The position numbers and the translations under genes were made by a program. A stretch of 60,171 nucleotides of DNA, filler included, from Dugesia japonica (taxonomy: Eukaryota): assembly GCA_001938525.1 (NCBI GenBank). It is 5 parts of 5 records of this genome, joined end to end, with 100 filler letters (N's around TTAATTAATTAA, not from the genome) between each part and the next. Parts side by side here need not be neighbours in the genome. Positions count along the whole stretch, not along the records: positions 31,275 to 40,123 come from MQRL01619321.1; 4 more parts are not named here. One strand, 5' to 3'. Below the pieces are notes generated by a model. The model was given only the letters and a program-made list of their open reading frames with translations. It searched no databases and had not been told where the DNA came from. This document shows positions 7,901 to 57,561 of the stretch, piece after piece. Each line of letters opens with the position of its first letter. Positions within the stretch are counted from its first letter, which is position 1.

Positions 7901-10900
7901 TTGAATTGACTATTAAATATGAGTTTAATTTGAATATTTTTAAAAAGATGTGAAGTTATTTGAATCATTATTTAAACAAAATATTTTATTATAATTTTAT
8001 TGAGAAAATTGGACTTGTTTAATTTGATCTAAATTTGATAATACAATTTGGTAAATACTTTATTCCAGTATTGAATTCTCCGTCAACGCTTATACTAAGT
8101 TGAGTACACTTCGGAAGTTATGCACCTTCGGTGCTCATTAGTACAAAATATAGTCCACCACTTCAAACATTGGTTTATATATGTTAGTGTTATGTGAATT
8201 AGTACTTTTAACTCCTCTTCGATGTATCTGCCTTAATAATTGTATGGAGTGTTAATTATTATATCGTTGTCATTAATATTTATCGAACTGTTTGTCGTGA
8301 CGTATGAATACGTGTTATTGTTTGAATGATTTGAAAAAGAAATAAAATGAAACCTTTGCTTTTTATGTTTAAGAAACGCTATTTCAAACAAATTATATTC
8401 ATAAGTTTTATTAATTACCATTTATGTCAGTTTCAGAAACATGAATAAAGATTAAAATTTTTTGGTCTCAAATACTTATCTTTTAAAATCGTCTCGGCAC
8501 TGCAAGGTGTCAAAACCATTAAAGATTATGAAATTCTTTAGTAAAATGAAGTTATTAAGATTATCAAGAACATTAACAAAAAAAGTAAAAATATTTAATA
8601 GGTAACATTTATTGTTTTGAAATGCACATGAATGAATAGCAGAGTTGTTGAACAAAGACTAATTTCAAACTAAACGGAGTATAATCAAAATATTTTCACA
8701 TCAAACTGTAGTATCAATTGAAACAATGAGTTTTAATGAGAATTGAAACGTATCCAAACACCAGATGAGGTGACGTTTCAGTTCTCATTAAGAATCACTG
8801 ATTGAAATAAGAGAATTCTGAATATTTGAAATATGAACATGTAGATCTGAAATTACTGTATTGATTAATAAAGATTGATTTTTAATTTAAGAGTTTATTA
8901 TTTTGTGTGAGAATTAGAAATTTCTGATAAAAATCAACAAAATTTTAGGAAATAACTAAAACCTGCATTCAATCTTTTCCATTGTTTTAATTATCAGATT
9001 TTTCAAAAGGACTCGAATTGACCGTTTAAATCAGAGGTGCCCAAATAAATCAGAGCCAAATAATAATTTTCAGAACTTTTCACGGGCTAAGGATACAAAT
9101 TGTTTAGAATTTTAAAAGTACATTATTACCGCTTAGAATTCTGTTAAAACAGAAATTTACTCATGTTCAACAAAAATGCATTAAGTAGATATTTGATCTA
9201 ATTATATTTTAGGAGATGTAACAAACTGTTTCAATGCTAATATATACTTATACATTAACATCAAATTTTACATTGATTCACGAGCTAGAAAATCACAAGT
9301 GGTGAGCCAGATTTGACCCAGAAACCGGACATTAAACACCTCTGGTTTAAATATTTATTAGAAAATAAATTTTATAGTTTATTAATGTAGTTAAATTAGC
9401 AAAAGCAAATTTAAAATAATATATCATTTTTCTTTCAATTTCAACATTTAATTTTTATACATAAAAAATTAATTAATAAATATATATTTTAAAAAACAAT
9501 TCAATATTTAAGAATATAAAGAAATTCCGCTGCACAATTGGTTATGTTACGCAAAATATATCTAAAATAACCCGAACCGTCTAAAGCTGTAACATTGTTA
9601 ACTTCTTGAATAAATTCCGAGAGAAAACCTGATTTCCCCTCTCTTAATATTTTATTTTTTGAAATGCGTTTTCAATTGGATTCAGCATATACGAATAAGG
9701 TAATAAAAATTTATATTCATATCCCTAATCCACAGTTATTCTTTGAATATCATTTCGTTTATGTATTGTCTAAAATAAAACTAGTATTTTCGATCTTTAG
9801 ATTGTTTTTCAAATGTAAACATAATTTCAATACATACTCAGAAAAAATATTCGAATTAACTATTAACTCGGAAATATATATAAATATGTTAAAATCATAA
9901 CTAAAAAATTAAAATACTAACTTTTTTACTCTGTAAATCTAATTTTAGAAATGTGTTAAGTACGGAGTTACTAGTTATAATTTATTAAAAAAATTTTTTG
10001 TGAACTAGGTTGTTTATTTACAAATTTTTAAATCAGTAGTTTTTCTTAATTGGAATATTAATTTCTAATGAAATTCAATTAATTAAAATATTTTGATAAT
10101 AAAATTGAAAATTTTCATTGTCAATAAATCGACTCATGAAAAAACATGAAATAGTAGGACTTAAATAAGATAAAAGTGAAGTCATTGTGTTTATTNATTT
10201 TGTGTAATTATCAAATAATGTTTTGATTTTATATCTTAATATTGATTTACGTGATTTATTGACTGAGAACTATCAACGGAGGTCGCTAGGTGATATAATG
10301 TAATCAATAATAATCCTATTGTGATTGCTGATTGATTATTAATAACTAATCCATATTATATAATGACTATATAATTTTTTTTGACTTTTCATGGTAATCT
10401 AATACGTCATGCACATTTTTTTTAGAAATTGAGATTTAATGCCTCAGTTCTCATTGGCTATATAAATTTTCCAAAATGACTCATTTACTGATAGCATCTT
10501 TTAAAAAAAAATTATCTAAAGAGTTCGGCTAACCCATTACTTAATGACAATATTAGTCTACTTTATAAAATCGATTAATATTCTTATTTTGTTTTGAATT
10601 ATTAAATAGTAAAATAATGAATAATATTACAGATCAAATTATAAATGCAGACCTGTATATCAAATCACTAGATCAAAATTGTTGGCCAGGTATAATAATA
10701 ATGATNNNNNNNNNNNNNNNNNNNNNTTATTGTTTTTAATAGATTAAAAGCAGATAATTACATTTCTGATAAATCTTATTTTGGACAAAGTGAGTATGAT
10801 CAAACTCCTTTGTTAGATATGTCAGGACAAATAGGAAGTGATAATATTCAATTTTCAAACAGAAATATTGGTGTTACTATTGATAATGGAGTAATGCTTT

Positions 10901-19366: not shown

Positions 19367-19466
19367 NNNNNNNNNNNNNNNNNNNNNNNNNNNNNNNNNN
19401 NNNNNNNNNNTTAATTAATTAANNNNNNNNNNNNNNNNNNNNNNNNNNNNNNNNNNNNNNNNNNNN
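19367..19466. other. Artificial assembly spacer (44N + TTAATTAATTAA + 44N)
   Basis: Identical 100-bp structure also at 31175-31274, 40124-40223 and 49666-49765; the 12-mer has stops in all six frames. Confidence 0.9.
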
Positions 19467-21275: not shown

Positions 21276-21406
21276 TGAATGGCTAAATAAATTTTGGTGT
21301 CATCTAAATTCAGTGTTGCTTATTTATTTGATTTTGTCTTATAGACTTATTGCTTTCCGTATAAATGTTCTTGATTTTGTTAACAATGTTTTTAATTTCA
21401 GTTGAT

Positions 21407-21655
21407 ATGGAATTTATATTGGAAAGAGTCATCGACCGACGAACGCGTCGCATAATCTTTCGACGGCATAGAAATCCTTACAATCAAGACGCGGGCATTC
21501 TTTCTGATCAATCTAATCTACCTCCCGTGGAGGCTATGGTAGCCGGATCCAGAATTTTGGAGAGTGGCAAAACTATCAGGAATGGAATGGTGCATAACCA
21601 TGCAACCCCTTTCAGCAGTGCAAGCTTTTATTACGAACTTGCTCTGGGGTGTTAG
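21407..21655 (+). CDS. Arg-rich small protein B1 (82 aa)
   Basis: TTTCAG acceptor 5 nt before ATG; ERVIDRRTRRIIFRRHRNP is identical in paralog B2. Confidence 0.6.
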   Translation: MEFILERVIDRRTRRIIFRRHRNPYNQDAGILSDQSNLPPVEAMVAGSRILESGKTIRNGMVHNHATPFSSASFYYELALGC

Positions 21656-21962
21656 AGAACCCAAGGGTGCCGAAAAATCGTAGAACGTAGATCCAATAGC
21701 TAATACGGAGACTGGCCAGTAATTGTCAATACTAATTATGATTTAACTGTCAATTGAATAAATAGTTGTCTCAAGTTTTATAAGCAATCCGTTTCATTCA
21801 ACTTTATTTTTTTTAGTTCATTTATTTGTCGTTGTAACGAGAAATATTTCTTTTATTTCCATAATTAGTAAGGTTTGCAGTGTTGTATGCGAGTAGATGC
21901 TTTACGTACTTCGTCATTTTATTGTTGTCTGCATAGATTTCATTTAATATCCATTATTCTAG

Positions 21963-25530: not shown

Positions 25531-25902
25531 ATGAGGAGAATCAAAAAAAATATGATAGGGGAATATAAAGGATATACAAATTATGTAAAATTAAATAATG
25601 AAGAATTATATCACGATCAAAAAGTTAATTTAACTTTCTTGAATAATCCTCCTAAATCTTATTCTAATTTATTATATATCGAAAAGAAAGGAAATCAAAT
25701 TATTATTAATCAAAATAATCGTCAAAATGAACAATACATTACCATAAAAAAAGGTTTTGAATTTGGTAAACTAGTTATAAGAGATAAAAATACGAGCGGA
25801 TATATTTATGAGTGTTTATCTTATGAAGCTAGCGACAAAACGAATAACAATGACATATATTTAGACAATTTTTTGCCCTTTATACTACACAAACAAGAGT
25901 AG
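25531..25902 (+). CDS. Intronless 123-aa ORF, virus/Maverick-like accessory protein
   Basis: AAATG start, open frame, tightly packed with same-strand neighbours. Confidence 0.45.
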   Translation: MRRIKKNMIGEYKGYTNYVKLNNEELYHDQKVNLTFLNNPPKSYSNLLYIEKKGNQIIINQNNRQNEQYITIKKGFEFGKLVIRDKNTSGYIYECLSYEASDKTNNNDIYLDNFLPFILHKQE

Positions 25903-25994
25903 CTCGTGATGTTAATAAAAATAATAATGAGCCAAATGAAACAATTATAAAATCTAAGTTGTATTAAAAGCATAAAATCTTAATTTTATTAGAA

Positions 25995-26617
25995 ATGGAG
26001 AAAGAATATGATCGTATTTATCCTGATATAAATGAGGAAGATAAAAATTTAGATCAACCAGTAAGAACGCCATATTTAGCTGATTATAAGTCAAAACCTA
26101 AAACATTAAGAATTAAAGATTTTGAAAATGATTTAACATTCTTAACACATAAAATAAATCATTATTATAAATCATATAGAAGATGGAAAATCTTTGATAC
26201 AGGTGTAAGATATACTGATATTTTAATAGGATGTTTATTTGGTGCCGCAGGTATAATAATAACCGTTTTATCTACAAATGGTATAGTTATTTAACTTTAC
26301 CTGTTATTATACTTGGTACATTTCCTTTAACAAATTCAATTATTCATGGTCTATTAAACATAGCTTTAATTAAACGAAGAAAGAAAAAGTATAATGATTT
26401 AATTAAAGAATTAGAAACTAGTAAAAATAAATTATTTCTATATCATCAGAGATGCTTACATTATAATATATTAATAGATGAAGAAATAAGTACTAGTAAA
26501 ACAATTGTTAGTGAAATCAAAAGTAAAATATTAAAGATTAAAAAAGACAGTATAAATGAAGATAATAAAGAAACAGAAAAAGATAATACTTTTTTATTAA
26601 CAAAGCTAAAAAAATAG
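25995..26617 (+). pseudogene. Frameshifted two-TM-helix protein of the kind recurrent in Maverick/Polinton-like elements
   Basis: IYP..LRIKDFE..YYKSYRRW, TM1 (ILIGCLFGAAGIIITVLSTNG), frameshift ~26290, TM2 (LPVIILGTFPLTNSII), RRKKKY..SKNKL..IDEEI helical C-terminus. Family assignment is from memory. Confidence 0.5.
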
Positions 26618-28452: not shown

Positions 28453-30393
28453 TCATTCTCCTCCTTCTCCTCCAGATAGTAATCTTCTCCTCATTTCCAG
28501 ACACGAATGGAATTGTAGAGGTAAATTTATTTGACCTACAGAACGAGAATGGTCAAACATGTTTTCTAAATATTGCATTGAATGGTTATAATTGGAAATT
28601 AATGACTCCAAAGATTCCTCATCTGTACTATTTGAGTGATCAATTTCATAACGAATACTGAAAATCAAGCAATTAATATTGTATATCATGTCAAATAATC
28701 CTCCAAATAAATAATTTAAATTATATATATAATTTAAATAATGACATTTTATCTTAGATATTTGATCATCATAATCATCATCATCATCAGAATTGTCATT
28801 ATCATCATCAACAAAATTGTCATCATCATCATCATCACCACCAGAATTGTCATCATCACCATCATCAAAATTGTCATCATCATCATTTAAATAATGACAT
28901 TTAATCTTAGATATTTGATCATCATAATCATCATCAGAATTGTCATTATCATCATCAACAAAATTGTCATCATCATCATCATCATCAGAATTGCCATCAT
29001 CAAATATCATAATTTTGTGATATAGTATATATTTTGAATAAAATTCAAAAAAAGCCTTTATATTAACAAATTCATGAAAATGTTTTCCTAATGATTCAAT
29101 TAGATCAAGTTTTACAAATATTGATTGGATATTTTGATGTTTTTTCGTTATTTCATTATTGATGAAGCATGTTTTATCTGACTGCCAAATAACTGTCAGA
29201 TTTATTTGTTCCATCATTTCCATCAAATCTGTAAAATTAGTTATTTCCAATAATTCTTCAATCAATAAACTTGATATTTGCAAACAATTTTCCACAAGGC
29301 AATGTAAAATATTGTTATAATTAGATTTGAAATAATCAATAGTTGTTGGTGTTTCACATTGTATCTTGTTGTTTGTGAATTGATCAGTTTGAATAATAAT
29401 TTGTAAAGTAGTTAATAATAATTCTCCGTTATGAAATGGACAACTTCCATAAATTATGCTAAACATCTGGATGCAATCGATACAAATTTTATGATTACAA
29501 TTGGGGAATTTTGCATAGCAAATATTATTATCTTCACAAGTAACAAAATAATTATCTCCACATATTAAACACATTTCTTCTGTTACCAAATGAAAATTAG
29601 GTTCGATTTGTTCGTATAATTTATTATTATATCGTATAAGAGAAATAATTTCGGTTTTAATTTGTTTCTTCATTTCACACATAGCATGGATATGGTTCAT
29701 TACTGTAGCAAGATGTCTTTGTTTGATATTTGCAATTTCTGGTTTACTTGACAATTCATCTCGTAATTGGTCGCAAGATCTAAGCAAATGCTTTATTAAT
29801 TTTGAGAAATCTTCAAATACGGATTTGGTAAAACAATAAATGTAATTTAATTCGTTGGTTTGAATTTCTTTGTCTTTCAAATAGATTTCTTCAAATATAA
29901 TTTGCTTTTTAGATTTCTCAGTGTAAAAATAACATTCATCATAAATTACTGTTAATTGTGCAATAATTGCTATAAAATCGAACGATAAGCTACGATCATT
30001 TGATGATGACAAATTTAACATTTCTAATAAATTACTTAGAATTATATTGATTTCCTCCACATCTTTAATAAATTTAGAAAAATATTGTGATAAATTCTTT
30101 TCGATCTCTTTCTTGATAAATTCTGAATTATTTATTATTTCTTTTCTAATTACACTGTTCTGATAATGATGTATACTTTTTTTTATTTCTGGTTGATTTT
30201 TTCTGAGAGTTGTAACAGTTCTACATTCAATATTATCAAATGGACATTTAACTGTTTCATTAAAAACGATTTCATTAGTACATTCCTCGCAAATAGAATA
30301 TCTACAATTTCCTAATTTAAATGAGGTTTCATTGCTAAATTCAGCATAGCAAATCAAACAAACTTCTTCAGTAAAATTACTTTCTAAATTCAT
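28453..30393 (-). CDS. Intronless protein with two RING-type zinc fingers, helical/coiled-coil regions and an Asp-rich repeat (putative E3 ligase, 646 aa)
   Basis: CLIC..CRYSICEEC..CPFD and CLIC..CNHKICIDC..CPFH. First ATG at 30393 (the ORF track starts at an upstream TTG, 30432). Confidence 0.8.
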   Translation of the reverse strand: MNLESNFTEEVCLICYAEFSNETSFKLGNCRYSICEECTNEIVFNETVKCPFDNIECRTVTTLRKNQPEIKKSIHHYQNSVIRKEIINNSEFIKKEIEKNLSQYFSKFIKDVEEINIILSNLLEMLNLSSSNDRSLSFDFIAIIAQLTVIYDECYFYTEKSKKQIIFEEIYLKDKEIQTNELNYIYCFTKSVFEDFSKLIKHLLRSCDQLRDELSSKPEIANIKQRHLATVMNHIHAMCEMKKQIKTEIISLIRYNNKLYEQIEPNFHLVTEEMCLICGDNYFVTCEDNNICYAKFPNCNHKICIDCIQMFSIIYGSCPFHNGELLLTTLQIIIQTDQFTNNKIQCETPTTIDYFKSNYNNILHCLVENCLQISSLLIEELLEITNFTDLMEMMEQINLTVIWQSDKTCFINNEITKKHQNIQSIFVKLDLIESLGKHFHEFVNIKAFFEFYSKYILYHKIMIFDDGNSDDDDDDDNFVDDDNDNSDDDYDDQISKIKCHYLNDDDDNFDDGDDDNSGGDDDDDDNFVDDDNDNSDDDDDYDDQISKIKCHYLNYIYNLNYLFGGLFDMIYNINCLIFSIRYEIDHSNSTDEESLESLISNYNHSMQYLENMFDHSRSVGQINLPLQFHSCLEMRRRLLSGGEGGE

Positions 30394-30754
30394 TATTGAT
30401 AAATATTGAATAATAATTGATTTATCAAACAAATTTTATTTGATTTCATTATTTCAAATTTTTCCAAAATGCATTTAATGAATAATAATTATTGAAATAA
30501 TTATTTAAACTATAAAATATTAAAATACAAAATTGTTTTATCAAATTAAAACTTTTAACTTGAAAATTGATTAAAATAATAATTATATGAATATTCCAGT
30601 GTTGTATGTTTGTTTTTTTTCCATGTTTGTTTGTATTTTTGTGCGGGATGCTCAATTTTAATCAAAAAATTTAAAATATTGTGATTTTTTATTGTAGCTT
30701 TTAAATTTTAAATTATTATATTAAAAACCTAGTGTTGTGTGTTTGTTTGTTTTA

Positions 30755-30982
30755 CAGGGTTTTTCATTATATTTCATTCTGGTTTTCAAAATATTTAACT
30801 ATTCTTTAAATTGTACAAAATGCAAATGTATTTGAACAAATGTAAATAATTGAACAATTTTTCAACAAGCATAGTGAAATATTTTGAACAGATTATTAAA
30901 TATATTGAAAAGATTATTAAACTTTTTTGAAAAGATTATTAAATATTTTGAAAACCAGAGTGAAATATAATGAAAAACCATG
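30755..30982. mobile_element. Tc1/mariner-type MITE
   Basis: ~44-bp TIRs CAGGGTTTTTCATTATATTTCATTCTGGTTTTCAAAATATTTAA; TA TSD. Confidence 0.85.
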
Positions 30983-31321
30983 TATTTGAAAATTTATGAA
31001 AGTTTAAAAAATTCGTAAGATTTAATGAAAAACTCTCAGAAAATGGAGAAACTTCAATGATGATAATTTTAAATATTTTAATGAAAATTTTAAATCTTTC
31101 AATGAATTTAATAATTACAATTATTGTGAGAATAATTGTTGGACTTAACCATTGATCGGATTTGAGATTTCATTNNNNNNNNNNNNNNNNNNNNNNNNNN
31201 NNNNNNNNNNNNNNNNNNTTAATTAATTAANNNNNNNNNNNNNNNNNNNNNNNNNNNNNNNNNNNNNNNNNNNNTCAATATTTATACGCTAAAAAAATTT
31301 ATTTGCGTTTATTGTATTATA

Positions 31322-31772
31322 TTAGGTCGTTTCATAAGTGTTGTCGATTTTTATTGACGTATTCAAATATGAGAATATATAAGCAAATATTAATTTAAAT
31401 GAAATCAATTTAATTATTTTTTTGAATTTTTCATATTGTTTATTTAATTATGCTAAAATTTAAGGACGATCAAACAAGTGATGCCAAGATAATGAATGAT
31501 CAACCAACGAGGGACCATATTCGGAATTGCATGCTTTATGAATTCCGTAAAGAAAAAAAAGACTGCGGAAGCAACAATGCGGTGTAACCTGAAGCACTGA
31601 ACGTCAGAACATATCAGCGTTGGTTTTCCAGATTCAGATAGGAGAATTTAGATTTGGCTGACTGTCCATGCTCCGGACGTCTTCTTGATGTCAATGAAGA
31701 CTTCCTACAGTAATTAATTAATAAATTAATACACAGAAAACATTGATTGAGATGGAGACTATAATGGGCTTA
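31322..31772 (+). mobile_element. mariner 5' fragment
   Basis: TA|TTAGGTCG TIR; HIRNCMLYEFRK, VRTYQRWFSRFR, DCPCSGR HTH motifs; cut by the hAT insertion. Confidence 0.8.
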
Positions 31773-31780
31773 TTAGTTAC

Positions 31781-32977
31781 CAGAGCTTAGGAGAGGAGCG
31801 CGGAGCATCGGAGCACAAGGTTTTGTCCGGGGCTGGAGCGGAGATTGAAGTACAATAATTTTGATTTCTCCACTTCTCCAGTTTATTAAAAAAATACATT
31901 ACGTAATAGATTTACTAAATATACTAAAGTAGAGATACTAAACTAGTACATAGATACATTGCGTACATATCTAAAAATCTATTCCGATTTTTGCTTTGAT
32001 GTTATTTTGTTTCATTCAATTATGAGTTTATGGATTTTGAGGTTATGGTATATTTTTGTGAGGAAAGCCGAAAATAAAAGTTTTCACAACTTACTTATTC
32101 ATTCAACTTGATTTATTAAATTATTTAAATAAATTTATGCAAGAAAGTACGAGTCTAATTTGCATTCGAAACGGTATTCTCAATGTGAAAACGCAAAGAG
32201 AATCTTTTTAAAAACACGCATTTTTGCTGAGATTTATGTCGATCCACGCTATAGAATTTTACTAAATTCATTGCAAAAATTGAAAGCTAAAGAAGGACTC
32301 TTAAGTATCGCCCAAAGGCTTGAGAAACAAAATATTCTACGACGTTTCAATAAATTGCAACCGAGTAAAGAAATACAATTAGTAACAGTAAAATCAGATA
32401 TACAAGGAAATGATTATGCCACTACCATAGGCATAAATTCTTCAGAAGATAATGATTTTGAGAGAGGTTGATAAGCAGGAAAAACGATGAAAAATCTCAG
32501 AAATACATAATTCCAACGAAGAAGAGTTTGAACCATTTTTTATGAAGATTATGAAATTATAGAGGGCATGGGTAGGCTCAAAGTTAAATCAGTCTTCGAG
32601 GCAATTTATAATTATCCGGAACAAATTCAAGATGCATGTTTAGTTGCATCCAGTATGCCCACTACTCAAACAAGTATCGAGAGACTATTTTCAGCTCTAA
32701 AGTTAATATTGAAAGAAAATTGATAATGAAAGAAGGCTTAATCACAGCAGTTTTATTTCATAGAATAAATAACGAAAATTGATATCGTTTGTATTTAATT
32801 AGTATAACTTGAAAGAAAGTTTTTATTTAATTAATTTACATTTAAAAAATTCTTTTTCTTCCAACTTTTGTGGATATATAATTTTTTATAAATTGTCCTC
32901 GGAGCATGGAGTGGAGCGCAGCCGGGCGGTAATGACGGAGTGGAGAACTATAAAAAATTGACTGCTCCAAACCCCTG
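31781..32977 (+). mobile_element. Internally deleted hAT element with C-terminal transposase remnant
   Basis: CAGAGCTTAGGAG / CTCCAAACCCCTG TIRs; GGAGC repeats; TSD TTAGTTAC/TTAGTTAA; YVDPRYR and hATC motif MPTTQTSIERLFSALK. Confidence 0.85.
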
Positions 32978-33779
32978 TTAGTTAAAATTAGTAACAATTG
33001 TAAAAATTATTTAGGATAAAAGTATTGAATTAATTAAATATTTAAACCTACGTAACAAAAATATGAACTCATTTTAAAATCTGTTCACAAAATAAAACAA
33101 TTCTTCTTTTCAATAAATAATAATCAATGCAAAATAAGTAATATTAATAAAATTTTAAAAAATCGTGTTGCACACTTTGTAAGCTTCTACACTACAATAC
33201 AAGTTGACCGAAATTTTCAAATCATAAACCAATTTTAATAATACAGTCGCCGCGTAACATTTATTGCCGCATATTACGTGCATACAACAAAGGTTTTATA
33301 ATCGTGCTTACTATCTACGTATTTCCTATCAGTCGTTTATTATGTGCACATTTATTATGTGAATGTCACTTAATGTGTGCATCTTGACGCGTTGTGATGG
33401 TAAATTAGTCATATATTTTAATGTACTTTATATGTGCATGAGAATTATAAAGCACATACATGTAGTGGAAATTGGTAGGGGTCTTTATTTAGAATTCATC
33501 AAAGAGACTGCATGGACTATCATTTTTTCATCAAATCTAAATGAAAAACGAATCTTTACGATTGGTGAAGGAAATGATCTTCTCAGTGATATAGCTGAAA
33601 AATATGAAGTTCAAAGAAATACAGTAATAAACTGCCGGAGGATGCTCTCTGATAGCAAAAGGTAAGCCAAATAACCACATTTTATTTGGTTTTCTAAAAT
33701 TTCATTTATTTTATAAGAATGCTTTTGAAAGGTGCTATCAGGAAAAGAAAGCTATAAAGATCAGGAAAAGCTTGCAATA

Positions 33780-34285
33780 CAAATTGCATATAAAGCAGCA
33801 TGTGAATGAAGACGACCCGTATAGACGAATAAAATTCTGTGAATGGCTACTGAGAAAAATGAAGGATGATACAAATATGATAAACAAGATTTTGTTCACT
33901 AATTAAGTAAATTTATACATTAATGGATAGGTTATTTGAGTAATGCTAACCTTCACTGGATCTTTCCGACGAGTATGCAAGGTGCATCTTAAGTGATAGT
34001 GTGGGCCGAAATATTGGATAACAGAACTATCGTATCATTTGTCGTTGGTAGAAATATGAATAGCAAGAAGTAACTCAACATGTTCCAAGAAGAGATTTTT
34101 TCATCCTTGGTAAACGAGGATGGTAACTTTCCAGTTTCCTTTCAGCATGATGGAGTTCCATCTCATTACATCAGTAGCTTTCAGATGCTTGGATATGTTG
34201 GGGTGGTCCTTTTGTATGGCTTCCAAGATACCCCGATATCAGCCCATTCGATATTTATCTTTGGTGCTATTTGAAGCATAAATCA
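33780..34285 (+). pseudogene. Tc1/mariner-superfamily DDD transposase remnant
   Basis: NEDDPYRRIKFCEW, ILFTN, VIVWA, FQHDGVPSH, WLPRYPDISPFDIYLWCYLK. Confidence 0.8.
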
Positions 34286-34329
34286 TCATGAAGAATAAAA
34301 ATATGCAACGAGATATATAAAGGGTATAT

Positions 34330-35031
34330 TCACAAGATAAAATTAGTATTTCTTCAACAGGAGTAACACAAAGGTTAGTTTTCACTTTCGTTAAGTAAAA
34401 TCATTTTCGTCTACATGAATGTACAGCAACATTTCTTTAAATTCATTGAATGAGTTTGGCAAAAAAAGACGAAGTGTTGATCTTTGTGATAGTGGAATTT
34501 CCCTCATTTTATTAAGCACGAATTCATGGTTTTTACGTTTTCTGCTTTAATTTCCTTTTTTCTTCGAGTTCACATTAGCTACTGAAGATCCGGAATCATA
34601 ACATGTTTTTCTCTATTCCAAATGCGATTAATGATTTTTGAGAAAACGTAAAAACTCGCACTGATGCGCCCAATGACACTGTATTCTAGTTTACTATTGT
34701 GGAAGGATTTGAGTAAAGATTGTAGAATTCCTTGCCACTGACTGCTATTTAAATGTGGTTTTTCACTTTTTGGGTCATTTTTGCCATGACGACTATAATC
34801 ATTAACCTTAAACCAATTGTCAGCGTGTGAAAAATATAAACTAGCAAATCTATCAAAATTTTACCTGTTTATTTCAAAAACAATTTTGACAAATGTCTAA
34901 ATTCAGACGGCTACTAGATTAACCTTTTTATGCTTAATTAAAATAAACAACTACTGGTACATTTGATTTTATTATTCCAATAATCCCTTAAAATAAACTA
35001 AACCTGGACACTTATTTTGGAATGGAGGGAG
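34330..35031 (-). mobile_element. Plant-type DD39D mariner relic with Stowaway-like TIR
   Basis: TIR CTCCCTCCATTCCAAAATAAGTGTCC; remnants RIWNR, VNSKKKGN*SRKRK, MREIPLSQRSTLR, FKEMLLYIHVDE(K)*FYLTK. Confidence 0.75.
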
Positions 35032-35083
35032 TGTTTTTTAATTAATCATTTTAATCGTCTCAGTTCAAATATTTAATAAAAAC

Positions 35084-35458
35084 TACGTCACGATAAACAA
35101 AGCCATTTGCAGATTGAAAACCCCATTGAATGGGCACCGTAGATCGGATATCGCAAGGATATCAGCTAGCAGGAATCGGAATCTACCAGCTGATTTTAAG
35201 TGTCCCTTTGACAATCTAATGATGAAAGTCTTCTAAGGCAGAAAATTCTAAGAGAATTTGAAAGGACTTAACCGAAACACACTTAAACAACCGAGACATC
35301 AAATACGAAGTGCTGAAAATGCGTAAGGTTATCACTAACCAAACATCAGCCAGGCTCAGCCGACACGGCTCACGTTATCAGTACTAACGAGGCCTAGAAT
35401 GGCTTAACTTCCGAGATGGAATGAGATCGGGTGTACCAAACCTAGTATAAGCGTTGAA
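35084..35458 (-). mobile_element. 5S rRNA-headed SINE-like element (~375 bp)
   Basis: 5S-derived head 35458-35337 plus ~250-bp structured body shared with 8082-8304. Confidence 0.7.
35337..35458 (-). pseudogene. 5S rRNA-derived sequence (SINE head or pseudogene)
   Basis: CACCCGATCTC..ATCTCGGAAGTTAAGC..GGCCTCGTTAGTACT match conserved 5S blocks; 3' third is diverged. Confidence 0.85.
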
Positions 35459-36503
35459 ATCATCTATGAATCGACTAAAACTGGTGTGATAATGTAATAT
35501 TGTATTAATAAATGTGTCCAAAATGATTTTTATATATCATTTTTCCATCTGATTTTCCAATTAATTAGAATTTAATTTAAAAATAAAATAAAGTTAGACA
35601 AAATAAACAGTAGATTATAACAAAATAAAGTAAAATATATCACATTCAGAAGAAGAAACGGATATTTGTGAAATTATTCACAGAATTGATATCAGTTAGT
35701 CACATAAAATATAGTTTCAATTGATAATCAGTTAATTTTTAAAACAAAAAACACTGAATTTCTTTACTAAGTGAAATCCTGAATAAAAAATATTTTATCA
35801 AATAGAAATGACAGAATTATTTAAAGAAAATTAAGAATGTTTCAAGAATTAAGAGTTTCGAAAATCAGAAAAACCCAATAGTTAAATGATATTAAAATAT
35901 CGAAAGTATAAAAATCATCTGAAATAAATAAAGTGATGAAAAAAATTCATTCAACATTAAATTCCAGTTCTGTAACTGAGTGAACCAATTCTAAGAGATT
36001 ATCATTCCTAAAATATAAATAGCTGGATGATATTTGAACAATTTAATTTAATCTGAGCAAATAATTTGCAAAATCAACAATAATTTCGTATAAAATTCCG
36101 TTTTTATTGACATTGAAATTGTCAACAGTGATATTTCAGTTAAATTATAAAAACAAAACGCAAATGAATAGTTGTAAAACAAATGAAAACTTATCAAAGA
36201 AATATTATTTGATTTGAAAATAAATAAAATAACTAAAGGATTAAAAAAAAAGATTTTTCTTTTACCAAAAATCTTAATTGAAAATTAATTGAAAATTAAT
36301 TAAAATTAATTAATTGAAAATTATTTTTAATAATCATGATTATTTTGAATATTTTCTGAAATTATAATTAACTTTTAAACGGTATTAAAACCTCTGAAAA
36401 TATTATTTTTATTTAATACTATGAAATACTCGTTCTTCTTCCTTATTCTATTTTCCGATTATTTTCCAGTTTACTTCATTTTAATTCATATTAACATTCC
36501 AGG

Positions 36504-36567
36504 TAGGGTTGCCAACATTTACCAACTACTCGACTGGGGGATTGACAAATAAACGGTCAATATAATA

Positions 36568-36632
<65 letters not shown>

Positions 36633-36682
36633 NNNNNNNNNNNNNNNNNNNNNNNNNNNNNNNNNNNNNNNNNNNNNNNNNN

Positions 36683-36740
<58 letters not shown>

Positions 36741-37085
36741 TATAATATATAATAATCAAATGTCTGTGGCTGTTTTCACATTTAATAAATAACCATGATT
36801 TTTATTATTCATCAGGTTTTTTACGTTAATAAATATGAATAACATATTAATCATTTCAAACAATCAAAATATTTTAAACTTGAACATAACCTCATTTTAT
36901 TTTAAATTTTATTTTTGCAGGCGCGTACCGATAGAATAATTAACAAACCGATTTTAATTTTTAATATTAAAGAATAATAAGTAAATTACTGATAATCATG
37001 TTCAAATTACTTATTAAACTGGAGACTGGATAAATGTCGCCAATACTGGAGTCTCCAGAAGAAACGGACACGGTTGGTAACTCTA
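36504..37085. mobile_element. hAT (Blackjack-like) MITE containing a (TAA)n microsatellite
   Basis: TAGGGTTGCCAAC / GTTGGTAACTCTA TIRs; TSD ATTCCAGG/ATTTCAGG. Confidence 0.85.
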
Positions 37086-37897
37086 ATTTCAGGCTACTGA
37101 ATTTTCTGTCTTCTGATACATATTTTATGGTAATATTCCTCTTTTACTAGTTTTTCAATTTCCAGAGAAACTAATTTCACTCACATTTTTATCAAGAAAA
37201 ACTTCGTTATTAGAATCCATTTATTGAGGAGAATTTGTCTGAAATTGAAAATCTTATTGAAAAGTTTGATACTCCAATTTGAATTTTAATCTTAATTTGG
37301 GGGTTTTCTAATTTTGAAAATCTTACTAAACTTTTATTTATAATTGCTAAATTCTCTATTAAAAATTTTTACAATTTAAATTTTAAACTTTATTTTCAGT
37401 ATTTAATATTACACAGGTTGTCTTAAATTATTCTAAAAATACTTACAAAGACTTTAACTATACACATCCAGCTCGAAACCAAACAACTCGAATACACTGA
37501 AATACACTCTCACTCATAATTTTACAATAAATGAAATATATTCCTTTAAATAAATTAAAATTTAAAAAAAATTTAAAACAGTTCCAACAAAATAAAGTTA
37601 TTTGTAAAATAATTCTTTAGTTTAATTTTTTAATGAATCCTCTGTGTTTACTGGAAAATCATCGAAAATTCAATAATTCTATTAACAGATTTTCTCTCCC
37701 AGGGCCACCTTATTGTTTCTTTTGATTAACTCTAAATAAATTCAAAAAATAGTATTGCATTGATTTTCATTTATTTTTCTGTGTTTCGTGAATCATTTGT
37801 ACACCATGCAACCTACTACAAATTTTCTGCGAATCATACGTGATTTACAAAGCACCCAGCGTGTTAAAATCAAATTTATCTGATTATTTTGACTTAT

Positions 37898-38195
37898 TTA
37901 AAAATTCATTGGAAGCAATTTCAGAGGTGGACTGCGAAGGATATTACAGACATACGCTTGGATACATCCCCAGATGCATCAACAATGAGTGTATTGAAGA
38001 TTAAAAATCAATTGTATCCAAGCGTATGTCTGTAATATTCTTCGCAGTCTACCTCTGAAATTGCTTCCAATGAATTTTTAATAGACTTCACCAAATCTGA
38101 TTCATTTTGAGGACATGATCTTTTCACAATCTCCTTCCACATAGAGAACATATTCTCTATGGGATTAAAAAATGGAGAATATGGTGGCAAAAACT
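37898..38195 (-). pseudogene. Tc1/IS630-like transposase C-terminal fragment with fold-back duplication
   Basis: LPPYSPFFNPIENMFSMWK motif; 69-bp inverted arms 37898-37966 and 38013-38081. Confidence 0.85.
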
Positions 38196-39804
38196 CAAAA
38201 AAAAAATTTTAAATAATGTATACCAATTTAATTTTACAATAATGTATATAAACAATTTTAAATTAAGCTTAACATATTTTAAATAAAAATTAATAAATTT
38301 TAAATTAAGCTTAAACATTTTAAATTAAACTTAAAATCCTGTATAATTTTTCAATTATATTTACTTTGCTATTTTACTTTATTACCAATTAAAAGTATTG
38401 GTTTGTTATGTTAGTCGATTTTATTAACGTAACAATTGATATAATAACCCTTCAAGATTGAAGTGGTTTTCATTTAAACATGACGAGTTTTTCAAATAAT
38501 TTCTTACTAGAGTGCCTATAACTGAAGGATAAACATTTTGACATAATTTATGGTTTGTTACTTAAACTTTAATAGAATTCCTTAAATGATTGTTAGATCA
38601 TCTAATATTGAACATTTTTAATAATAAATAATGAAATATACCTAATTCTACAAAAAAAATCATTCAAAAAATCATTACGTTTATTACGCGACTTGATTTT
38701 AGGCGTACTAATGGATTTATCCAAATAATTCTAAAATAATTTTTATATTATAAAACAATCAAAACTATAAAAATATTAAATAAAATGTATAAATTAATTA
38801 TATAAATTTCTAAACTAGCTATGTAACTTCTAAAATTTGTATTAAAAAACTCTATGATATATTTTCACATAAATAAATACTTTCTATTTTTTATTCCTCA
38901 ATACTATTTTACTTTAGTTTTTATTAGCCATTTTTATTTGATTGTTTTTCTGATCCGGCATATCTATTGATTTCTTCAAACATTTCTAAGTTAATGTCTT
39001 CATAACCTCGAAATCAAGTATTTTGAGCAGTTTTTATTTACTACCTTCATTTAATTTCAAATATATCGGCAATAAATTTTGTTCAATTATATAGTATAAC
39101 CTCTAGGATCGTTTCACACTCATAAATTTTCACAATTAAATCTATTGTATCTATCCTATGTAAAGTTAAATAGGAATAGGCATGATTCAACTTAATATCA
39201 GTAAAAATGTTCTAAGTAATAATAATAATATATAATTTTTACTTTGCTTTGTTTTATCGTTGCTATTTCCCGAACATTTATCATGTTTTCGCGAATATAT
39301 TATGTGACCGGATTCTAAGGTTCCAAAAAATAAAAATTTTCAATGAAAATAAATAATTTCTTTGGAAAATATAATAACTCCAAAATAAATTATTTCTAAA
39401 AAATATTTTGAAATTATTATCAATTAGAATTTATGGTAATTTTTAGATTTTTTATAAAATAATGCTCGAGCATTAACTTTAAGGTAAAAAATCATTCGTT
39501 AGTAAAATATATTATTGTAAATATATTATAAATATTGTAAATTATTATAAATATATTATTAAATATATTATATTATTANNNNNNNNNNNNNNNNNNNNNN
39601 NNNNNNNNNNNNNNNNNNNNNNNNNNNNNNNNNNNNNNNNNNNNNNNNNNNNNNNNNNNNNNNNNNNNNNNNNNATATGCATATAATTAATTATTACAAG
39701 CATATAGTGTAATTTCATACATTATTTCGAATTGATAATACTAAAATCTATTAATGTAAAATCAAAAATTGTGAACTTGCGCATTATAAATATAAAGAAA
39801 TTCT

Positions 39805-40032
39805 TTTACAATTGTAATTATTGCGAGAATAATTGTTGGATATAACCATTGATCGTTTTACAGAATTCATTTAAAATAAAAGCTTCGATCAAAATTTTTG
39901 TTTTTTTATTGATATTTGATAACAATTCGATATTTCGTCAATTCCTGAAGAAGACTAAGTCGAAATATCTAATTGTTATCAAATATCAATAAAAAACAAA
40001 GATTTTGATAGAAGCTTTTATTTCAAACGAAT
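39805..40032. mobile_element. Inverted pair of the HHR-bearing repeat (Penelope-like inverted pLTR structure)
   Basis: ~72-bp arms 39865-39937 and 39961-40032 around a 23-nt loop holding the HHR 5' half. Confidence 0.7.
39939..39975 (+). ncRNA. Minimal type I hammerhead ribozyme
   Basis: CAAUUC-CUGAAGA-A-GAC UAA GUC-GAAA-UAUC-UAAUUG. One stem I mismatch; the inverted copy retains GAAUUG. Confidence 0.65.
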
Positions 40033-41279
40033 AAGGAAATTCTTTTGTAAATTTTAATCATAAATAAATTTAGTTAAAAATTAAAATTTTATTTTAAAGT
40101 TTTTTTTTTGATTAAAATTTATGNNNNNNNNNNNNNNNNNNNNNNNNNNNNNNNNNNNNNNNNNNNNTTAATTAATTAANNNNNNNNNNNNNNNNNNNNN
40201 NNNNNNNNNNNNNNNNNNNNNNNCGACACCCGTCCTTGTTATTTAATTTTTGATTTNNNNNNNNNNNNNNNNNNNNNNNNNNNNNNNNNNNNNNNNNNNN
40301 NNNNNNNNNNNNNNNNNNNNNNNNNNNNNNNNNNNNNNNNNNNNNNNNNNNNNNNNNNNNNNNNNNNNNNNNNNNNNNNNNNNNNNNNNNNNNNNNNNNN
40401 NNNNNNNNNNNNNNNNNNNNNNNNNNNNNNNNNNNNNNNNNNNNNNNNNNNNNNNNNNNNNNNNNNNNNNNNNNNNNNNNNNNNNNNNNTTTGGGCCATA
40501 TTATATGATATCTGCAGTACATCACCAATTTTCTTAACAGTAAGGCTAATTTCATAAGCATCAGTGTTACCAATTCAATATTTTTCTTTCTTGAATCACT
40601 TTTTGAAGTTTGGAAATTAATTTCTCTGATTTTTTTGTACTCTTTACAAATTGTTATGAAGCGACGTACACTTATGCGATCATCTGAACCTGCTTCTTCT
40701 GTAATTTTATCAATTCTTGTCACTAATCATACGAATCTGCGTAAAGTTTCAATTAGAATAAATAACCGTGCTTTTTGTGGCTTCGCTGAACTTTTTTATA
40801 AACATCGAAAACAAATACAAAATGTTTAAATCGATTTGAATATTAAAACAAGATACAATAATGAAAGTTTAGTGCTAGCTTATATTCATACAACACAATA
40901 ATATCTGAAATTCAAAACTACGCCGTTTTTCCGATATAGCATATAATTATGTTTTTATTTTCATGATTTTTTAAAATTTTATCAATAAAGTGCATATGAG
41001 AACTTCTGGGACACATTTATGTGTGTTCATTGGATACACGTTAAATGTGTGAGTATGTGATTTTAGACCACTTTCATAACTTTTCATTAAAGAAAATTAT
41101 TACAAGCATTCAAATTATGTCACAGAATTTTAATTTCTGTTAAATGTGAATTTTCATCACGCACAAGTGTAAACCTTTTGTACCGATAATTATCGTGTTA
41201 ATCTTTGAATGAGAAAGAGGAAATCTTATTTTTAAATTCTTATACAGAATTCATAATTGTGAAGTAAAAATGAAACATA

Positions 41280-49460: not shown

Positions 49461-51284
49461 CATGAATCTAAGTTAAAATTATCCAGTAAACAATACCGCG
49501 TGGAGGGAGTGAGTCAGTATCTAAGTCAGATACGGCCATAGAAATAATGTTGTTTTGTAGGAGTCTGAACCATAGACCAAGATTTACAATTCATTTTTCT
49601 TTAGTCATGCCAGCCGAATTGTGGCGTACCCTTCATTGGATAAAACGACGTCGGCAAACCACCCGNNNNNNNNNNNNNNNNNNNNNNNNNNNNNNNNNNN
49701 NNNNNNNNNTTAATTAATTAANNNNNNNNNNNNNNNNNNNNNNNNNNNNNNNNNNNNNNNNNNNNAAAAAAATAAGAAAGTTTCGAAAAAAACAATTCGG
49801 CCAAAAAAATTGCAGAGAATGAAAAATTATTAATCCTCATAGTTCAAAAAATCATAAATAAATTTTCTGAGAGACGAAGAAATTGTTGGGAGAAAATAAG
49901 AGAAAAAATCAAAAACTGAATCTNNNNNNNNNNNNNNNNNNNNNNNNNNNNNNNNNNNNNNNNNNNNNNNNNNNNNNNNNNNNNNNNNNNNNNNNNNNNN
50001 NNNNNNNNNNNNNNNNNNNNNNNNNNNNNNNNNNNNNNNNNNNNNNNNNNNNNNNNNNNNNNNNNNNNNNNNNNNNNNNNNNNNNNNNNNNNNNNNNNNN
50101 NNNNNNNNNNNNNNNNNNNNNNNNNNNTTTCTTGTAAAATTAATTCCCTTTTATAAACTATTTTAATTTGCATGATTTATTTTATTTAATAAATTAATTG
50201 TTTATTTTATTTTCAATTAATTTATTAATTAGATTGCTATTCTTCGTTTCCAAGCTAAAATTTTATTTATGTATTCCTTTCCATAAAGAATTCATTTAAT
50301 TTATTTCTTGTTTTTAATTATTAATTGAATTTTCTTTATTCTTCGTAATGAATTATTCGATCCAGTTATTATTTGCTTTCGTAGTCTGTCAGTGTCTTTC
50401 TCTGCCAATTTATTCCTGTATTTTTCTTTATTTAATAGCAATATTTTCTATTTCCAAAATTGTTTTTCGTTTCTTAGTTTTTTCATTACTANNNNNNNNN
50501 NNNNNNNNNNNNNNNNNNNNNNNNNNNNNNNNNNNNNNNNNNNNNNNNNNNNNNNNNNNNNNNNNNNNNNNNNNNNNNNNNNNNNNNNNNNNNNNNNNNN
50601 NNNNNNNNNNNNNNNNNNNNNNNNNNNNNNNNNNNNNNNNNNNNNNNNNNNNNNNNNNNNNNNNNNNNNNNNNNNNNNNNNNNNNNNNNNNAAAAATTCA
50701 CGAATTGATGAAATGATACATATAATACACGGTTCTATGAAAATTGCGTACAAGAAAATTGCGCACAATATGAAATTATTATATGAATTTTTATAAAAAT
50801 TAATATATGAATTGAATGTTCATTCTTAAATAATTCATTTTTGAAAAAAAACAAAGTAAAGAAAGAACAAATAAAATAATTGTAATATTAATGCTTCCAA
50901 TTTAAATTCGCACAGGAAAATGGTGAAAACACTACATACTGCCTAATATTTCCCCTCTATATTGAAAATCGACAACTCTATCACTAAAATTAAAAGTTGA
51001 ACAATTGATGAAATTCCTGAATGAATGTTTAGACCAATCTAGATTTAAAAAAACTATAATGCCCAACAACTTCTTAGAACTCCAACTACACTTGCATATT
51101 TTTATTTTTTAAGAAAAAATCACATTCTTCTATTCTACATATCACACTTTTTATTCAATAAAATTTTATTTTTTTATTAATAAATTTGATTCATTAATTA
51201 CATTTCAACTTTTTAATTAAATTTAAATGATAACTGTTTAAAAAATACCTTTTTCTCGAAGTTTTGAAGAAAAGTTCCTAAATT

Positions 51285-51947: not shown

Positions 51948-52967
51948 CTATGATTCTCCATTCAATTTCCCAACTTTCTTATCACGAAACACAGCATAAC
52001 AACAAGCACACAAACTCGAATAATGACAGAACACCGCCAGACACAAAGAGCACACATATCCAACCGACACCAAAGTTCCATGACAGAAACACGAAGCTCT
52101 GAAGTCGATATCGATATTATTCGAATTGTTGATCATCGTCAAGAATTGTCGATCGGTAACATCAGTCAAATAGAGAGTGATGAAGTATTGCAGTAAATCT
52201 CGTATTTTATTGATTGTCAAATAAATCCCATTTGTCATATCTACAGTTTGTCGCAAAATATTCGCTTTGTCAAACTCAAATTCATTAGACAACGGATGAG
52301 AATTATTGTTGTGCATCATCATTGCCGGATTCGAATCGTCTGGGTTTAATATACACACGTCGATACAAATGTTATGTTTCTGTGCTGTGAACACTCCATT
52401 CATCATCGACATGAAACTCGCAGAACTATCCGGTAATCCAGTGCGCACTACGATAAATCTACCGCAAAATAATTCCAACTGATTATTATGAGTTTTGTGA
52501 ATTTTCAGAATTCTTTTGTAATAACAAAGCGATTTAATAAATCCTCCGGAGAGATTTACATAATTAATGAGAGATGCATTACTTTCATTGATTAGTTTGA
52601 AAATATTTTCTCGGATTTTTATTTCAGCAAATTGGATATAGCGATTTTTCGATGAACTGATAGAAATAGGAACATCACATATCATATCAGTGGTGTAGAT
52701 GTATTCGCTTTTCTCTGGGACAATTCCAATTATAGCTAATTCTTTTTTACTGGAAAATGTGAGAAACATACTAGAAAATGCAACAATTGTATCGATATAC
52801 GTCGAAAGAGTATGATCTGAGTGTTTTAACCACCAAGATGGAGTTAAATCCAATATTATACATAATAGTTCGCTTTTAGGATAATTTAACTGAGCACTAC
52901 TTCCAGAAACTCCTAAGAAATTATCGTACTTAACTACTTCAGAATTGGAAATTGATTGTTTATACAT
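51948..52967 (-). CDS. GTF2H3: General transcription factor IIH subunit 3 (p34/Tfb4)
   Basis: LLCIILDLTPSWW, SFMSMMNGVFTAQK..IDVC, ILRQTVDMTNGIY, DFRASCFCHGTLVSVGYVCSLCLAVFC..CACC: vWA-like Tfb4 domain plus C-terminal zinc finger. Confidence 0.95.
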   Translation of the reverse strand: MYKQSISNSEVVKYDNFLGVSGSSAQLNYPKSELLCIILDLTPSWWLKHSDHTLSTYIDTIVAFSSMFLTFSSKKELAIIGIVPEKSEYIYTTDMICDVPISISSSKNRYIQFAEIKIRENIFKLINESNASLINYVNLSGGFIKSLCYYKRILKIHKTHNNQLELFCGRFIVVRTGLPDSSASFMSMMNGVFTAQKHNICIDVCILNPDDSNPAMMMHNNNSHPLSNEFEFDKANILRQTVDMTNGIYLTINKIRDLLQYFITLYLTDVTDRQFLTMINNSNNIDIDFRASCFCHGTLVSVGYVCSLCLAVFCHYSSLCACCYAVFRDKKVGKLNGES

Positions 52968-55099: not shown

Positions 55100-57561
55100 A
55101 GTTAGAAAATAGTGATTATTTTGTCAGTTTAATTGAAATTATACAAAATATATTATTCTTAAATAAATCTTTAATATTAATTTCGAGTCTTTTTACTAGC
55201 GACCACACCAAAATTATTGCATTAACAAGAGCGAAACTCGAAGAAAAGCAAAAGATTTTTCAAATTTGCCTCAAAAAACTAAAGAAATGTTAATTCTGAA
55301 ATAAAGTTTTTTGGCGGTCTCAATCAAGATGCCGAAGAATGGATGCACACAACAAAAGATTTTGTGACATTCATTCAAATGGAATTTGCTTTCGCATTAG
55401 ATATACTGTTAAGAGATGATGCGAAACAGTTGTGAGAGAATATCATGTATTTATGAAGAAGAGCAAAGTGTGAATGAGATTTATAATTTAGACGAAATTC
55501 ATGATATCGATGATAGTGAAATGGAAAGAAACTTCTATTAACTCCCTGTAGTTATCTCGTTGGTGGAGTTGAGTCAATGAAAATCCTATTAATAAGAAAA
55601 GAGGAAGTTGAGCTGAATGATAAAGAATTTATAATGTTTCAGAAAATAGACGGACGGCAATGGAGTATTATGAATTGTAATGGATGTGGAAATGTTGTGG
55701 GATTTTGGAGCATCAATAACAGTGATAAAAGAATAAAATGTGATTCGAATTGGTGCACCTAGTACGTTAAAGTCAGAAATTAGATTGTCAAGTGTTTTTT
55801 CTTCAAAACATGAATCATGTCTTGGTAAGATATTTGTACAGATTGTATGGAAAAAGAAACGTTTGATGAAAATAAATTTTGGTTGTTAAAAGTATTTCTC
55901 CTAGTTTCATTGGAGGAATTGATATGATGAAATTACGTGGAGTATTCTTGGCCGAAGTAAAATTGATTGATTCTTCTGAAGTAAATAAAACATATATGGA
56001 TTGTAATCGTGTTAAAACGGCATTAAATTATGTTGCTAATAGAACTCCATTTATTGAAAAGCTTATTAAAAAATATGGATCGATTTTTATGGTATCCAAA
56101 TTTGATTTAGGAATTAATTCATTAATTAAGCATCAAATTAATACAAAAGGACCTCTTCTAATTTCTCAGAATTCAAGAAGACAACCAATGTACTTCAAAT
56201 AAAAAGTTGATAAATTAATTGAAAAGAGCCCATGAAATTCTCCTTTAGTGATAGTACCAAAAAAGATGATACTATCCGAATGTGTTTGGGTTTTTGACGA
56301 GAGAATGAAGTAAATGAAAAATTTTCATTTCCCGTACCTGACATAAGCACACTTTTGGATACCTTAAATAAATCGACTACCTTTTCATCTATAGATTTAT
56401 GACAAGCTTATTATCAAGTTGTGTTAGATGAAGATTCACATATGAAAACCGCTTTTCATACGAAAATGGGACAATTCGATTTTAATCGGTTGCCATTTGG
56501 TTTATGTACAGCACCGGCAACTTTTCGGAGTTTAGTGAATTTGATTTTTAAAAAAATACTGTATAAAATTGTAATTGTTTATTTGGGTGACATTTTAGTT
56601 TATGGAAGAACTGTCGATAAACATAATCAAAAATTAGAAAAGGCATTTGAATTAATTAAAGCATCAAGATTAAAAGTTAATCCGGGAAAATGTTTTTAGA
56701 ACTGATAAATTGAATTGTTCTGGGGCACTCAATTAGTCAAATAGAAATTTAAATTAACTATGATAAATTAAAAAAATTACAGAAGCATTAACTCCAGGTT
56801 GTGTTACACAGTTAAGATGAAACAGCAATATCAGATGCTATTAAGAACCATTGGATTTAACGATTTAGAAAGCCACAATCAATCTTATCTGACCGGGGAA
56901 GAGTTTTTGAAGGTAGAAAAATGAACGAGTTATGTGAAAGATTTGAAGTTACACAAGAATTTACTTCACCTTACCAACATCAAGCCAATGGTTAAGCAGA
57001 GAGAGTAATTATAACAGTCAAAAATATGTTAGTCACTTCAATGAATAGTGATAAGAACAATTTTACTTTGGATATATACATTCCAAAGATTGAATTTTCC
57101 ATTAATTTAACATATTAAAGCGTTATTAAGAGATCTTCATTTAAAGTTTTGTATGGACAAAATACACATGCTAATCATGAACAAGTATTCAATGAAACAA
57201 AAGTAGAACTTAAACGAGTTGCGGAAGAATTTAGTAGGTATGAATCAGATACAAGAGGTCAAAGGCAATTTTCAGTTGGTGAAAATGTTCTTGTAAAAAA
57301 AGAACCTCATAATATTCATAAACGTGGAGACAGATATGAAGGTCCGTATTCGATTATTAAGTTCATAAGTCCCCATCAAGTTTCTCCGAATTTTCAAGAT
57401 GAACCAAAATCAAGGCGAATTGAAAGGCTATTACGAGTTTCAATTTAAATGGTGAGGGACGTTAGAAAATAGTGATTATTTAAACAGTCAATTTTGTTTA
57501 AATAATATAAAATATATTATTCTTAAATAAATCTTTAATATTAATGTCGAGTCTTTTTACT
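55100..57561 (+). mobile_element. Internally deleted Ty3/gypsy LTR retrotransposon
   Basis: LTRs 55100-55197 and 57460-57561; TSD AGATT; PBS-like (T)AGCGACC; PPT GGTGAGGGA; RT (KTAFHT..FNRLPFGLCTAPATF..VYLGDILVY); integrase core (SPYQHQANG*AER); GPY motif. RNase H is deleted. Confidence 0.9.
56230..56760 (+). pseudogene. gypsy reverse transcriptase remnant
   Basis: SPLVIVPK, FSSIDL*QAYYQV, PFGL, YLGD (YxDD mutated). Confidence 0.9.

Follow-up and report, generated by a model that had tools for sequence, protein, structure and literature searches.

In the planarian Dugesia japonica (assembly GCA_001938525.1), the locus studied here is very probably an old copy, altered by mutation, of an abundant interspersed repeat which begins at the +1 position of 5S rRNA and has dropped the last quarter of the 5S sequence. 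The repeat is likely a SINE3, with a master copy that RNA polymerase III (Pol III) would transcribe and a LINE would copy; this LINE probably belongs to the RTE clade. The locus (copy A) lies in a joined stretch of 60,171 nucleotides, called the window, which also holds a second, deleted copy (copy B). The data support a 5S-derived, SINE-like interspersed family. An earlier note made from the sequence of the window had proposed a 5S-derived SINE-like element at copy A; this proposal stands and is extended by an interspersed family with a shared body, whereas the head proved to be partial, the 3' end private to the copy and the structure local.

The 5S-derived head and the anatomy of the element

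Among 4227 Rfam families, only 5S rRNA (RF00001) gave a gathering-level match in the window, at 35358-35458 on the minus strand (40.8 bits, E 4.9e-05, gathering 38). The head of copy A corresponds to 5S nucleotides 1 to ~92 and lacks the last ~28 nt; in the Rfam alignment only 5 letters stand opposite 23 model positions. Genuine 5S reads align to copy A at 80% identity or more as far as 35380, where 21 reads of RNA run X14 part from it and proceed into the normal 5S 3' part; four genuine 5S reads of RNA run X13 agree with 35431-35407 at 23 of 25 letters. Similarity of copy A to 5S fades near 35368. Because the genuine reads diverge at 35380 and the likeness is gone near 35368, the head is taken to be a partial 5S, so that the full-length head of the earlier description keeps its 5S likeness and its minus-strand orientation but not its length. 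The body differs from a cellular 5S gene, as genuine 5S proceeds otherwise past 35380 and the body is common to copies of the family (Table 1).

Copy A keeps the box A and IE regions, while its box C region is worn (9 of 12 letters shared with genuine 5S reads); all three were placed by what we take to be the corresponding Xenopus 5S positions. The 5' half of box C departs from genuine 5S in the family majority letters too. The head is without the strands that close 5S helices V and I, folds no differently from shuffled sequences (z -0.39), and is neither a full-length nor a functional 5S. It does carry, at its 5' end, the 5S identity used here to define a SINE3 head (at least 60% identity to 5S rRNA across at least 60 nt). 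An expanded functional 5S, in which a far 3' end would close helix I, was considered and rejected: the normal 3' part of genuine 5S is present in RNA, and the family extends beyond the supposed pairing site. Separately, 15 X14 RNA reads carry another 5S-like head variant (35394-35408, with a loose end behind 35394), which possibly stems from a second 5S-derived subfamily.

Table 1. Features of copy A and copy B, in positions of the whole window.
Feature	Position	Strand	Basis
5S rRNA-derived head	35368..35458	-	Rfam alignment and genuine 5S reads
Body common to the family	35143..35367	-	contig depth, alignment with the body of copy B
Hairpin of 12 bp, including two G-U pairs, with a loop of 10 nt	35161..35194	-	shuffle test
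Small CCCA/TGGG hairpin with flanks (in most copies an RTE-like 3' motif; copy A has a worn form)	35105..35142	-	loose ends at 35131, 35127 and 35128 compared with RTE 3' ends; shuffle test
Non-repetitive 3' terminal segment	35075..35104	-	loose ends before 35084, 35091, 35092 and 35093 (X1, X6, X14)
Copy B, deleted and older	8082..8315	+	nhmmer, global alignment, body shuffle test

The element is ~385-400 nt long. The arms of the larger hairpin in its body (35194-35183 and 35172-35161) pair over 12 bp, and of 300 dinucleotide-shuffled versions of the body of copy A, only one forms a stem of at least 12 pairs. The 80-nt segment 35218-35139, the best of 10 examined, folds better than shuffles on the sense strand (z -4.1) and like them on the antisense strand (z 0.0), which bears out both the stem and the strand-specific G-U pairs reported previously. 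The claim of a structured body is not borne out: the full 375 nt fold like shuffles (z -0.83; 21 shuffles in 100 did equally well), and 35200-35100 folds weakly better than they do (z -1.9, 9 of 200 as good). The structure of copy A is confined to one hairpin. The G-U pair at 35187 is A-U in 39% of the contig depth in DNA run X1 and in 37% in DNA run X6, a change that preserves pairing, yet belongs to the commonest mutation class; in copy B the 12-bp stem is gone. As a guess, the hairpin might serve as a protein-binding or stabilising feature of the master RNA. ARAGORN found no tRNA genes in the body of copy A.

Abundance and dispersal of the family

At 80% identity or more, 1732 X1 and 1894 X6 contigs align to 34860-35700, most of them 80%-95% alike, and these counts take in genuine 5S and a neighbouring repeat. 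By likeness, the X1 contigs divide into 87 at 99% or more, 250 at 95%-99%, 692 at 90%-95% and 703 below 90%. Summed contig depth, which like contig numbers is a proxy for abundance and not a copy count, reaches 3,300-35,600 across 35150-35381 versus 12-21 across 35469-35555, and 3,100-13,100 across 35092-35323 versus 12-17 at 35469-35526. Past the 3' end, below 35083, the X1 depth is 14. The 86-base tail stretch has a summed depth of 2,874 versus 14.4 outside (a ratio of about 200) and is covered by 103 X1 and 110 X6 contigs; within the body, the majority letters at 35198 and 35213 are borne by 100-109 contigs. Just beyond either end of copy A the depth is at single-copy level. The locus may originate from one X1 contig (record 1), to which it is nearly identical. 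Copy A departs from the family majority letters at many positions and is therefore considered an old copy. Collections of metagenome and viral contigs, which are not expected to include this animal, contained no match to the element.

These patterns bear on the reading of the locus as a dispersed 5S pseudogene, or orphon, with ordinary 5S spacer as its body. A head that starts at the 5S +1, the lack of a target-site duplication (TSD) and three joints hinting at head-to-tail neighbours would all be expected of an orphon. In a 5S array, however, the spacer comes after a complete gene and a T run, whereas in copy A other sequence takes the place of the final ~28 nt of 5S; the single-copy depth just beyond both ends is unlike an array, and the body and the fixed end are common to about 100 contigs per position. 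An orphon is thus extremely improbable. The earlier note had itself named 5S rDNA spacer as the finding that would undo its proposal; that reading is largely refuted, and the element reading stands.

Copy B begins at the same 5S +1 as copy A (nhmmer E 0.0013/0.018). Aligned to the body of copy A, its body scores 48, a value equalled by none of 1000 shuffles (at most 40.5). It misses 15 head letters and several body blocks, retains the terminal palindrome at 8300-8313, and gave no match in an Rfam 5S search with E up to 10. Copy A and copy B have unrelated flanks and lie on opposite strands, 27 kb apart along the joined stretch, a spacing between separate records that need not be a genomic distance. 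The family is a short (<1 kb), interspersed, non-tandem repeat, as SINEBase asks of a SINE, and in the accessible text of that source (PMC3531059) all three of its defining traits are ones that the family has or very likely has.

The window as a whole is AT-rich (GC 0.18-0.33 per 2 kb) and holds many transposon remnants. A decayed DNA-transposon-like region (33363-35032) adjoins the 3' end of copy A and encompasses a DUF7769 piece (34582-34860) and a second repeat (34860-35004, summed depth 480-1330). Next to that repeat, a minus-strand stretch at 35011-35032 starts with CTCCCTCC and resembles the terminal repeats of Stowaway/mariner elements; no partner end for this stretch was found. A 95-nt inverted repeat at 37872-38107 (85% complementary, arms 46 nt apart) overlaps a DDE_3 transposase piece. 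Broken LTR-retrotransposon remnants occupy 55876-60171 on both strands, with reverse transcriptase (RT) pieces at 56403-56696 and 60004-60171 and an integrase piece at 56861-56992.

Several other features of the window were recorded. An intronless gene for Tfb4 (TFIIH p34) lies at 51948-52967 (-) (Pfam E 2e-53), and only two relatives were found, at 72% and 69%. A 660-codon open frame at 28453-30435 (-) encodes RING-like fingers, one a weak Pfam match and the second seen by eye, as well as a duplicated acidic segment, and matched no family beyond RING. A 591-codon frame at 10705-12480 (+), for which Pfam gave no match, likely encodes a membrane span and has a tail of low complexity. Three adjacent short frames (123, 108 and 132 codons) at 25531-26617 (+), also without Pfam matches, resemble small genes of Polinton-type elements, and the wording of 21365-21742, judged by eye, is presumably fibronectin/usherin-like. 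The gaps at 19367-19466, 31175-31274, 40124-40223 and 49666-49765 each consist of N44, a 12-letter AT palindrome and N44, an assembly or linker artefact.

The 3' terminus and the candidate RTE partner

The window has two occurrences of the 10-mer at which the earlier note ended the element, one at 35093-35084 (-) and the other at 8295-8304 (+), and the two copies agree at 15 of 16 letters around it. Both copies thus hold the 10-mer, as had been claimed, but 35084 is not the end of the family. Loose letters beyond 35084 agree among 18 X1 contigs (0.66) and 14 X6 contigs (0.63); beyond 35091, letters are shared by 9 X1 contigs, 8 X6 contigs and 6 RNA reads (agreement 0.73-0.87), and before 35091-35093, among the matches listed, each place has 3-9 contigs that share letters, along with 3-6 RNA reads, at an agreement of 0.61-1.0. 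The family extends ~20-25 letters past 35084; these complete a 14-letter palindrome and then run into a short CCCTTTA-like, T/A-rich terminus. Copy B holds part of this extension at 8305-8315. Position 35084 is a private deletion point of copy A, which seems to have lost ~12 letters at 35084/35083, the second half of the palindrome, between two short repeats; we infer that a T-rich remnant is kept to about 35075.

The absence of a poly(A) tail, reported previously for copy A, holds for copy B and for the loose-end consensus of the other copies as well. Neither copy A nor copy B has a microsatellite or other simple-repeat tail, and none was found in the loose-end consensus, whose lines span at most 30 letters. 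Such 3' tails are a typical SINE trait that lies outside the three formal SINEBase criteria in the accessible text (PMC3531059), and HaSE2 is likewise described without one in the available part of PMC3272025. A search for TSDs, which the earlier note had suggested as a check, found none above chance at either of the two copies: the best candidates at copy A are 5-6 bp long, which randomly paired flanks equal in 36% and 15% of cases, and the best at copy B (7 bp with one mismatch) is equalled in 47%. Since both copies are old, their TSDs may have decayed.

The CCCAT/ATGGG stem noted previously is present in copy A. In most copies of the family this small CCCA/TGGG hairpin is one letter shorter, a form backed at 35131 by 37 X1 and 38 X6 contigs (agreement 0.66 and 0.69) and by further loose ends at 35127 and 35128. 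The majority letters at 35136-35123, read by eye off loose-end lines, agree with the 3' end of RTE-2_PXu in the accessible supplement of PMC5786205 at 13 of 14 letters. The family has CTAC upstream of the 12-letter core and CTGA 10 letters after it (11 in RTE ends). The core with at most one change was found in 61 of 20000 body shuffles; when CTGA had to follow at a distance of 9-12 letters, the number fell to 1 of 20000. These frequencies apply to a motif taken from distant animals and picked after the family letters were known. For the letters of copy A alone the match is weak, with 969 of 20000 shuffles as good. As the CCCA/TGGG hairpin of most copies matches the RTE 3' hairpin, an RTE is the likely partner, and the balance tips slightly towards an RTE-clade LINE that recognises this hairpin.

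The comparison of the 3' end with LINE tails thus yielded a motif-level match to RTE ends of other animals but none in the window. No LINE with this tail was found there; tail matches numbered 2 versus 1.34 expected, with no second true tail among them. Pfam searches of 23 longer and 114 shorter window peptides (of 116 shorter ones, 5 inside two host ORFs were left out, and 3 were added) returned only Tfb4, RING, Yippee, DDE/mariner/BED, DUF7769 and RT/integrase pieces. The RTE insertion signature and the occurrence of RTEs in planarians have been described, as far as the available portions of the sources go (PMC6007223, PMC13295347).

After the RTE-like motif, the family continues for ~45 non-repetitive letters, whereas in RTEs a microsatellite begins at CTGA. 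RTE-borne SINEs also carry a microsatellite directly after the motif, according to the accessible parts of PMC5786205 and PMC6007223. Short-word searches with these ~45 letters found none of their words in the accessible supplement of PMC5786205. This fixed, repeat-free end past an RTE-like motif is the one unusual point of the family. It might mean that RTE can prime without a repeat tail, or that a non-LINE carrier (Penelope-like or tyrosine-recombinase) has been adopted; we consider this suggestion doubtful. The accessible portions of the literature examined contain no pairing of a 5S promoter with a Penelope-like or tyrosine-recombinase mobiliser.

If the family were throughout a 5S/Pol III passenger of such a non-LINE retroelement, the fixed palindrome end, the missing simple-repeat tail and the lack of TSDs, absent at two of two copies, would be accounted for. 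Yet the RTE-like motif lies where it is expected and on the expected strand, and the age of the copies offers decay as another source of missing TSDs. Ribozyme families were also sought in 30000-40000 with Rfam at E up to 5; of the 8 matches only 5S was above gathering, and no ribozyme family was among them. Such a passenger is accordingly quite improbable.

Helitrons insert at an A/T site, between an A and a T. The terminal palindrome and T-rich end of the family resemble what we take to be rolling-circle ends, and the lack of a TSD also agrees with a non-autonomous DNA transposon (a MITE or Helitron/Helentron) that has captured a 5S fragment. We regard this origin as barely conceivable, as the two ends have no inverted repeat, the start falls exactly on the 5S +1, the bases before it are T and C/G and not the A of the Helitron site, and the family letters run on past GTAG.

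Proposed life cycle and relation to known elements

Returning to the SINE3 reading, Pol III would transcribe a master copy from the 5S +1 through the body, using the 5S internal promoter. Pol III transcription is proposed because of the +1 start, the retained box A and IE regions and the lack of T4 runs in the majority letters at sites where copy A has them. On the sense strand of copy A such runs occur at 35319, 35245 and 35120 and are private to this copy; in the majority letters they are interrupted (78% at 35316 and 86% at 35119 in X1, and loose ends at 35227). Judging from its letters, copy A is probably dead, since Pol III would stop at the T4 run at 35319 and since both the RTE-like motif and the 3' end are damaged. 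A LINE protein would then bind the 3' hairpin of the master RNA, nick the DNA and begin copying at the 3' end of that RNA, presumably by target-primed reverse transcription. A possible source of the additional ~45 letters is the 3' UTR of the donor itself or a flank captured by read-through. Template jumping might operate at tail-head joints: in two joints (one contig each per run) a full tail is followed immediately by a head truncated at 5S nucleotide 60 or 81, an arrangement that fits template jumping but could have arisen by recombination.

RNA records on 34860-35700 number 452 of 13.6 million in X14 and 28 of 10.5 million in X13, and those at least 99% alike are one in X14 and none in X13. 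The tail stretch is covered by 20 X14 and 2 X17 reads. Over the body, X14 first mates lie on the plus strand about three times as frequently as on the minus strand, which suggests 5S-sense RNA if the library is read as most stranded libraries are. Family reads occur on either strand with no shared starts or ends, in oligo-dT or cDNA libraries that are unsuited to Pol III transcripts, and may derive from copies within mRNAs.

The family is of the SINE3 type, and its design is known from other animals. A 5S head joined to an RTE-derived end has been described for HaSE3 of Helicoverpa, CoeSINE5 of the coelacanth and SINE-1_Pmo of the python in the accessible parts of PMC5786205 and PMC3272025. 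As described there, these elements likewise combine a 5S promoter head with an unrelated body, at 225-350 nt, and CoeSINE5 has the same small RTE 3' hairpin motif. They differ in a short tandem repeat placed right after the RTE part, where the family described here has ~45 non-repetitive letters, and in holding a piece of an RTE 5'-UTR; no such piece was recognised in our family by eye and by short-word searches.

Closer to this animal, section 2.4 of a 2026 preprint (bioRxiv 10.64898/2025.12.11.693146), in its available portion, reports that SINE/5S and LINE/RTE are expanded in Dugesia and that SINE/5S is seemingly absent from Schmidtea. Abundant 5S-derived SINEs beside expanded RTE LINEs in planarians agree with our observations; that annotation, however, is automated and at class level (RepeatModeler, DeepTE), with neither anatomy nor partner in the portion seen, and it may include this family. 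No detailed account of a planarian SINE3 was found among the papers listed in the literature searches.

Partial 5S sequences also serve as Pol III promoters in the short, mobile and poly(A)-free Cassandra/Ajax elements (PMC10886601, accessible text), and copy A could be imagined as a solo LTR of a 5S-bearing TRIM of this kind, moved by an LTR retrotransposon. Its length is compatible, the LTRs of Ajax also carry only the 5S promoter part and no poly(A) (same text), and LTR-type RT and integrase remnants are present in the window. But Cassandra/Ajax, as that text presents them, are LTR elements with a PBS, a PPT, a 5-bp TSD and the 5S inside the LTR, none of which is seen in the family. In a TRIM, element sequence lies upstream of the 5S, while here copies and repeat depth start at +1, and neither TG..CA ends nor a 4-5 bp TSD flanks the ends. 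A TRIM origin is therefore very unlikely.

As a SINE3-type element, the family is a described flatworm-type addition to the small set of 5S-headed SINEs. Such copies exceed the Rfam 5S threshold and consequently run the risk of being mis-annotated as 5S genes. With its fixed end and lack of a repeat tail, the family lends itself to a natural test of whether RTE priming needs a 3' microsatellite, an idea taken from the available part of PMC6007223.
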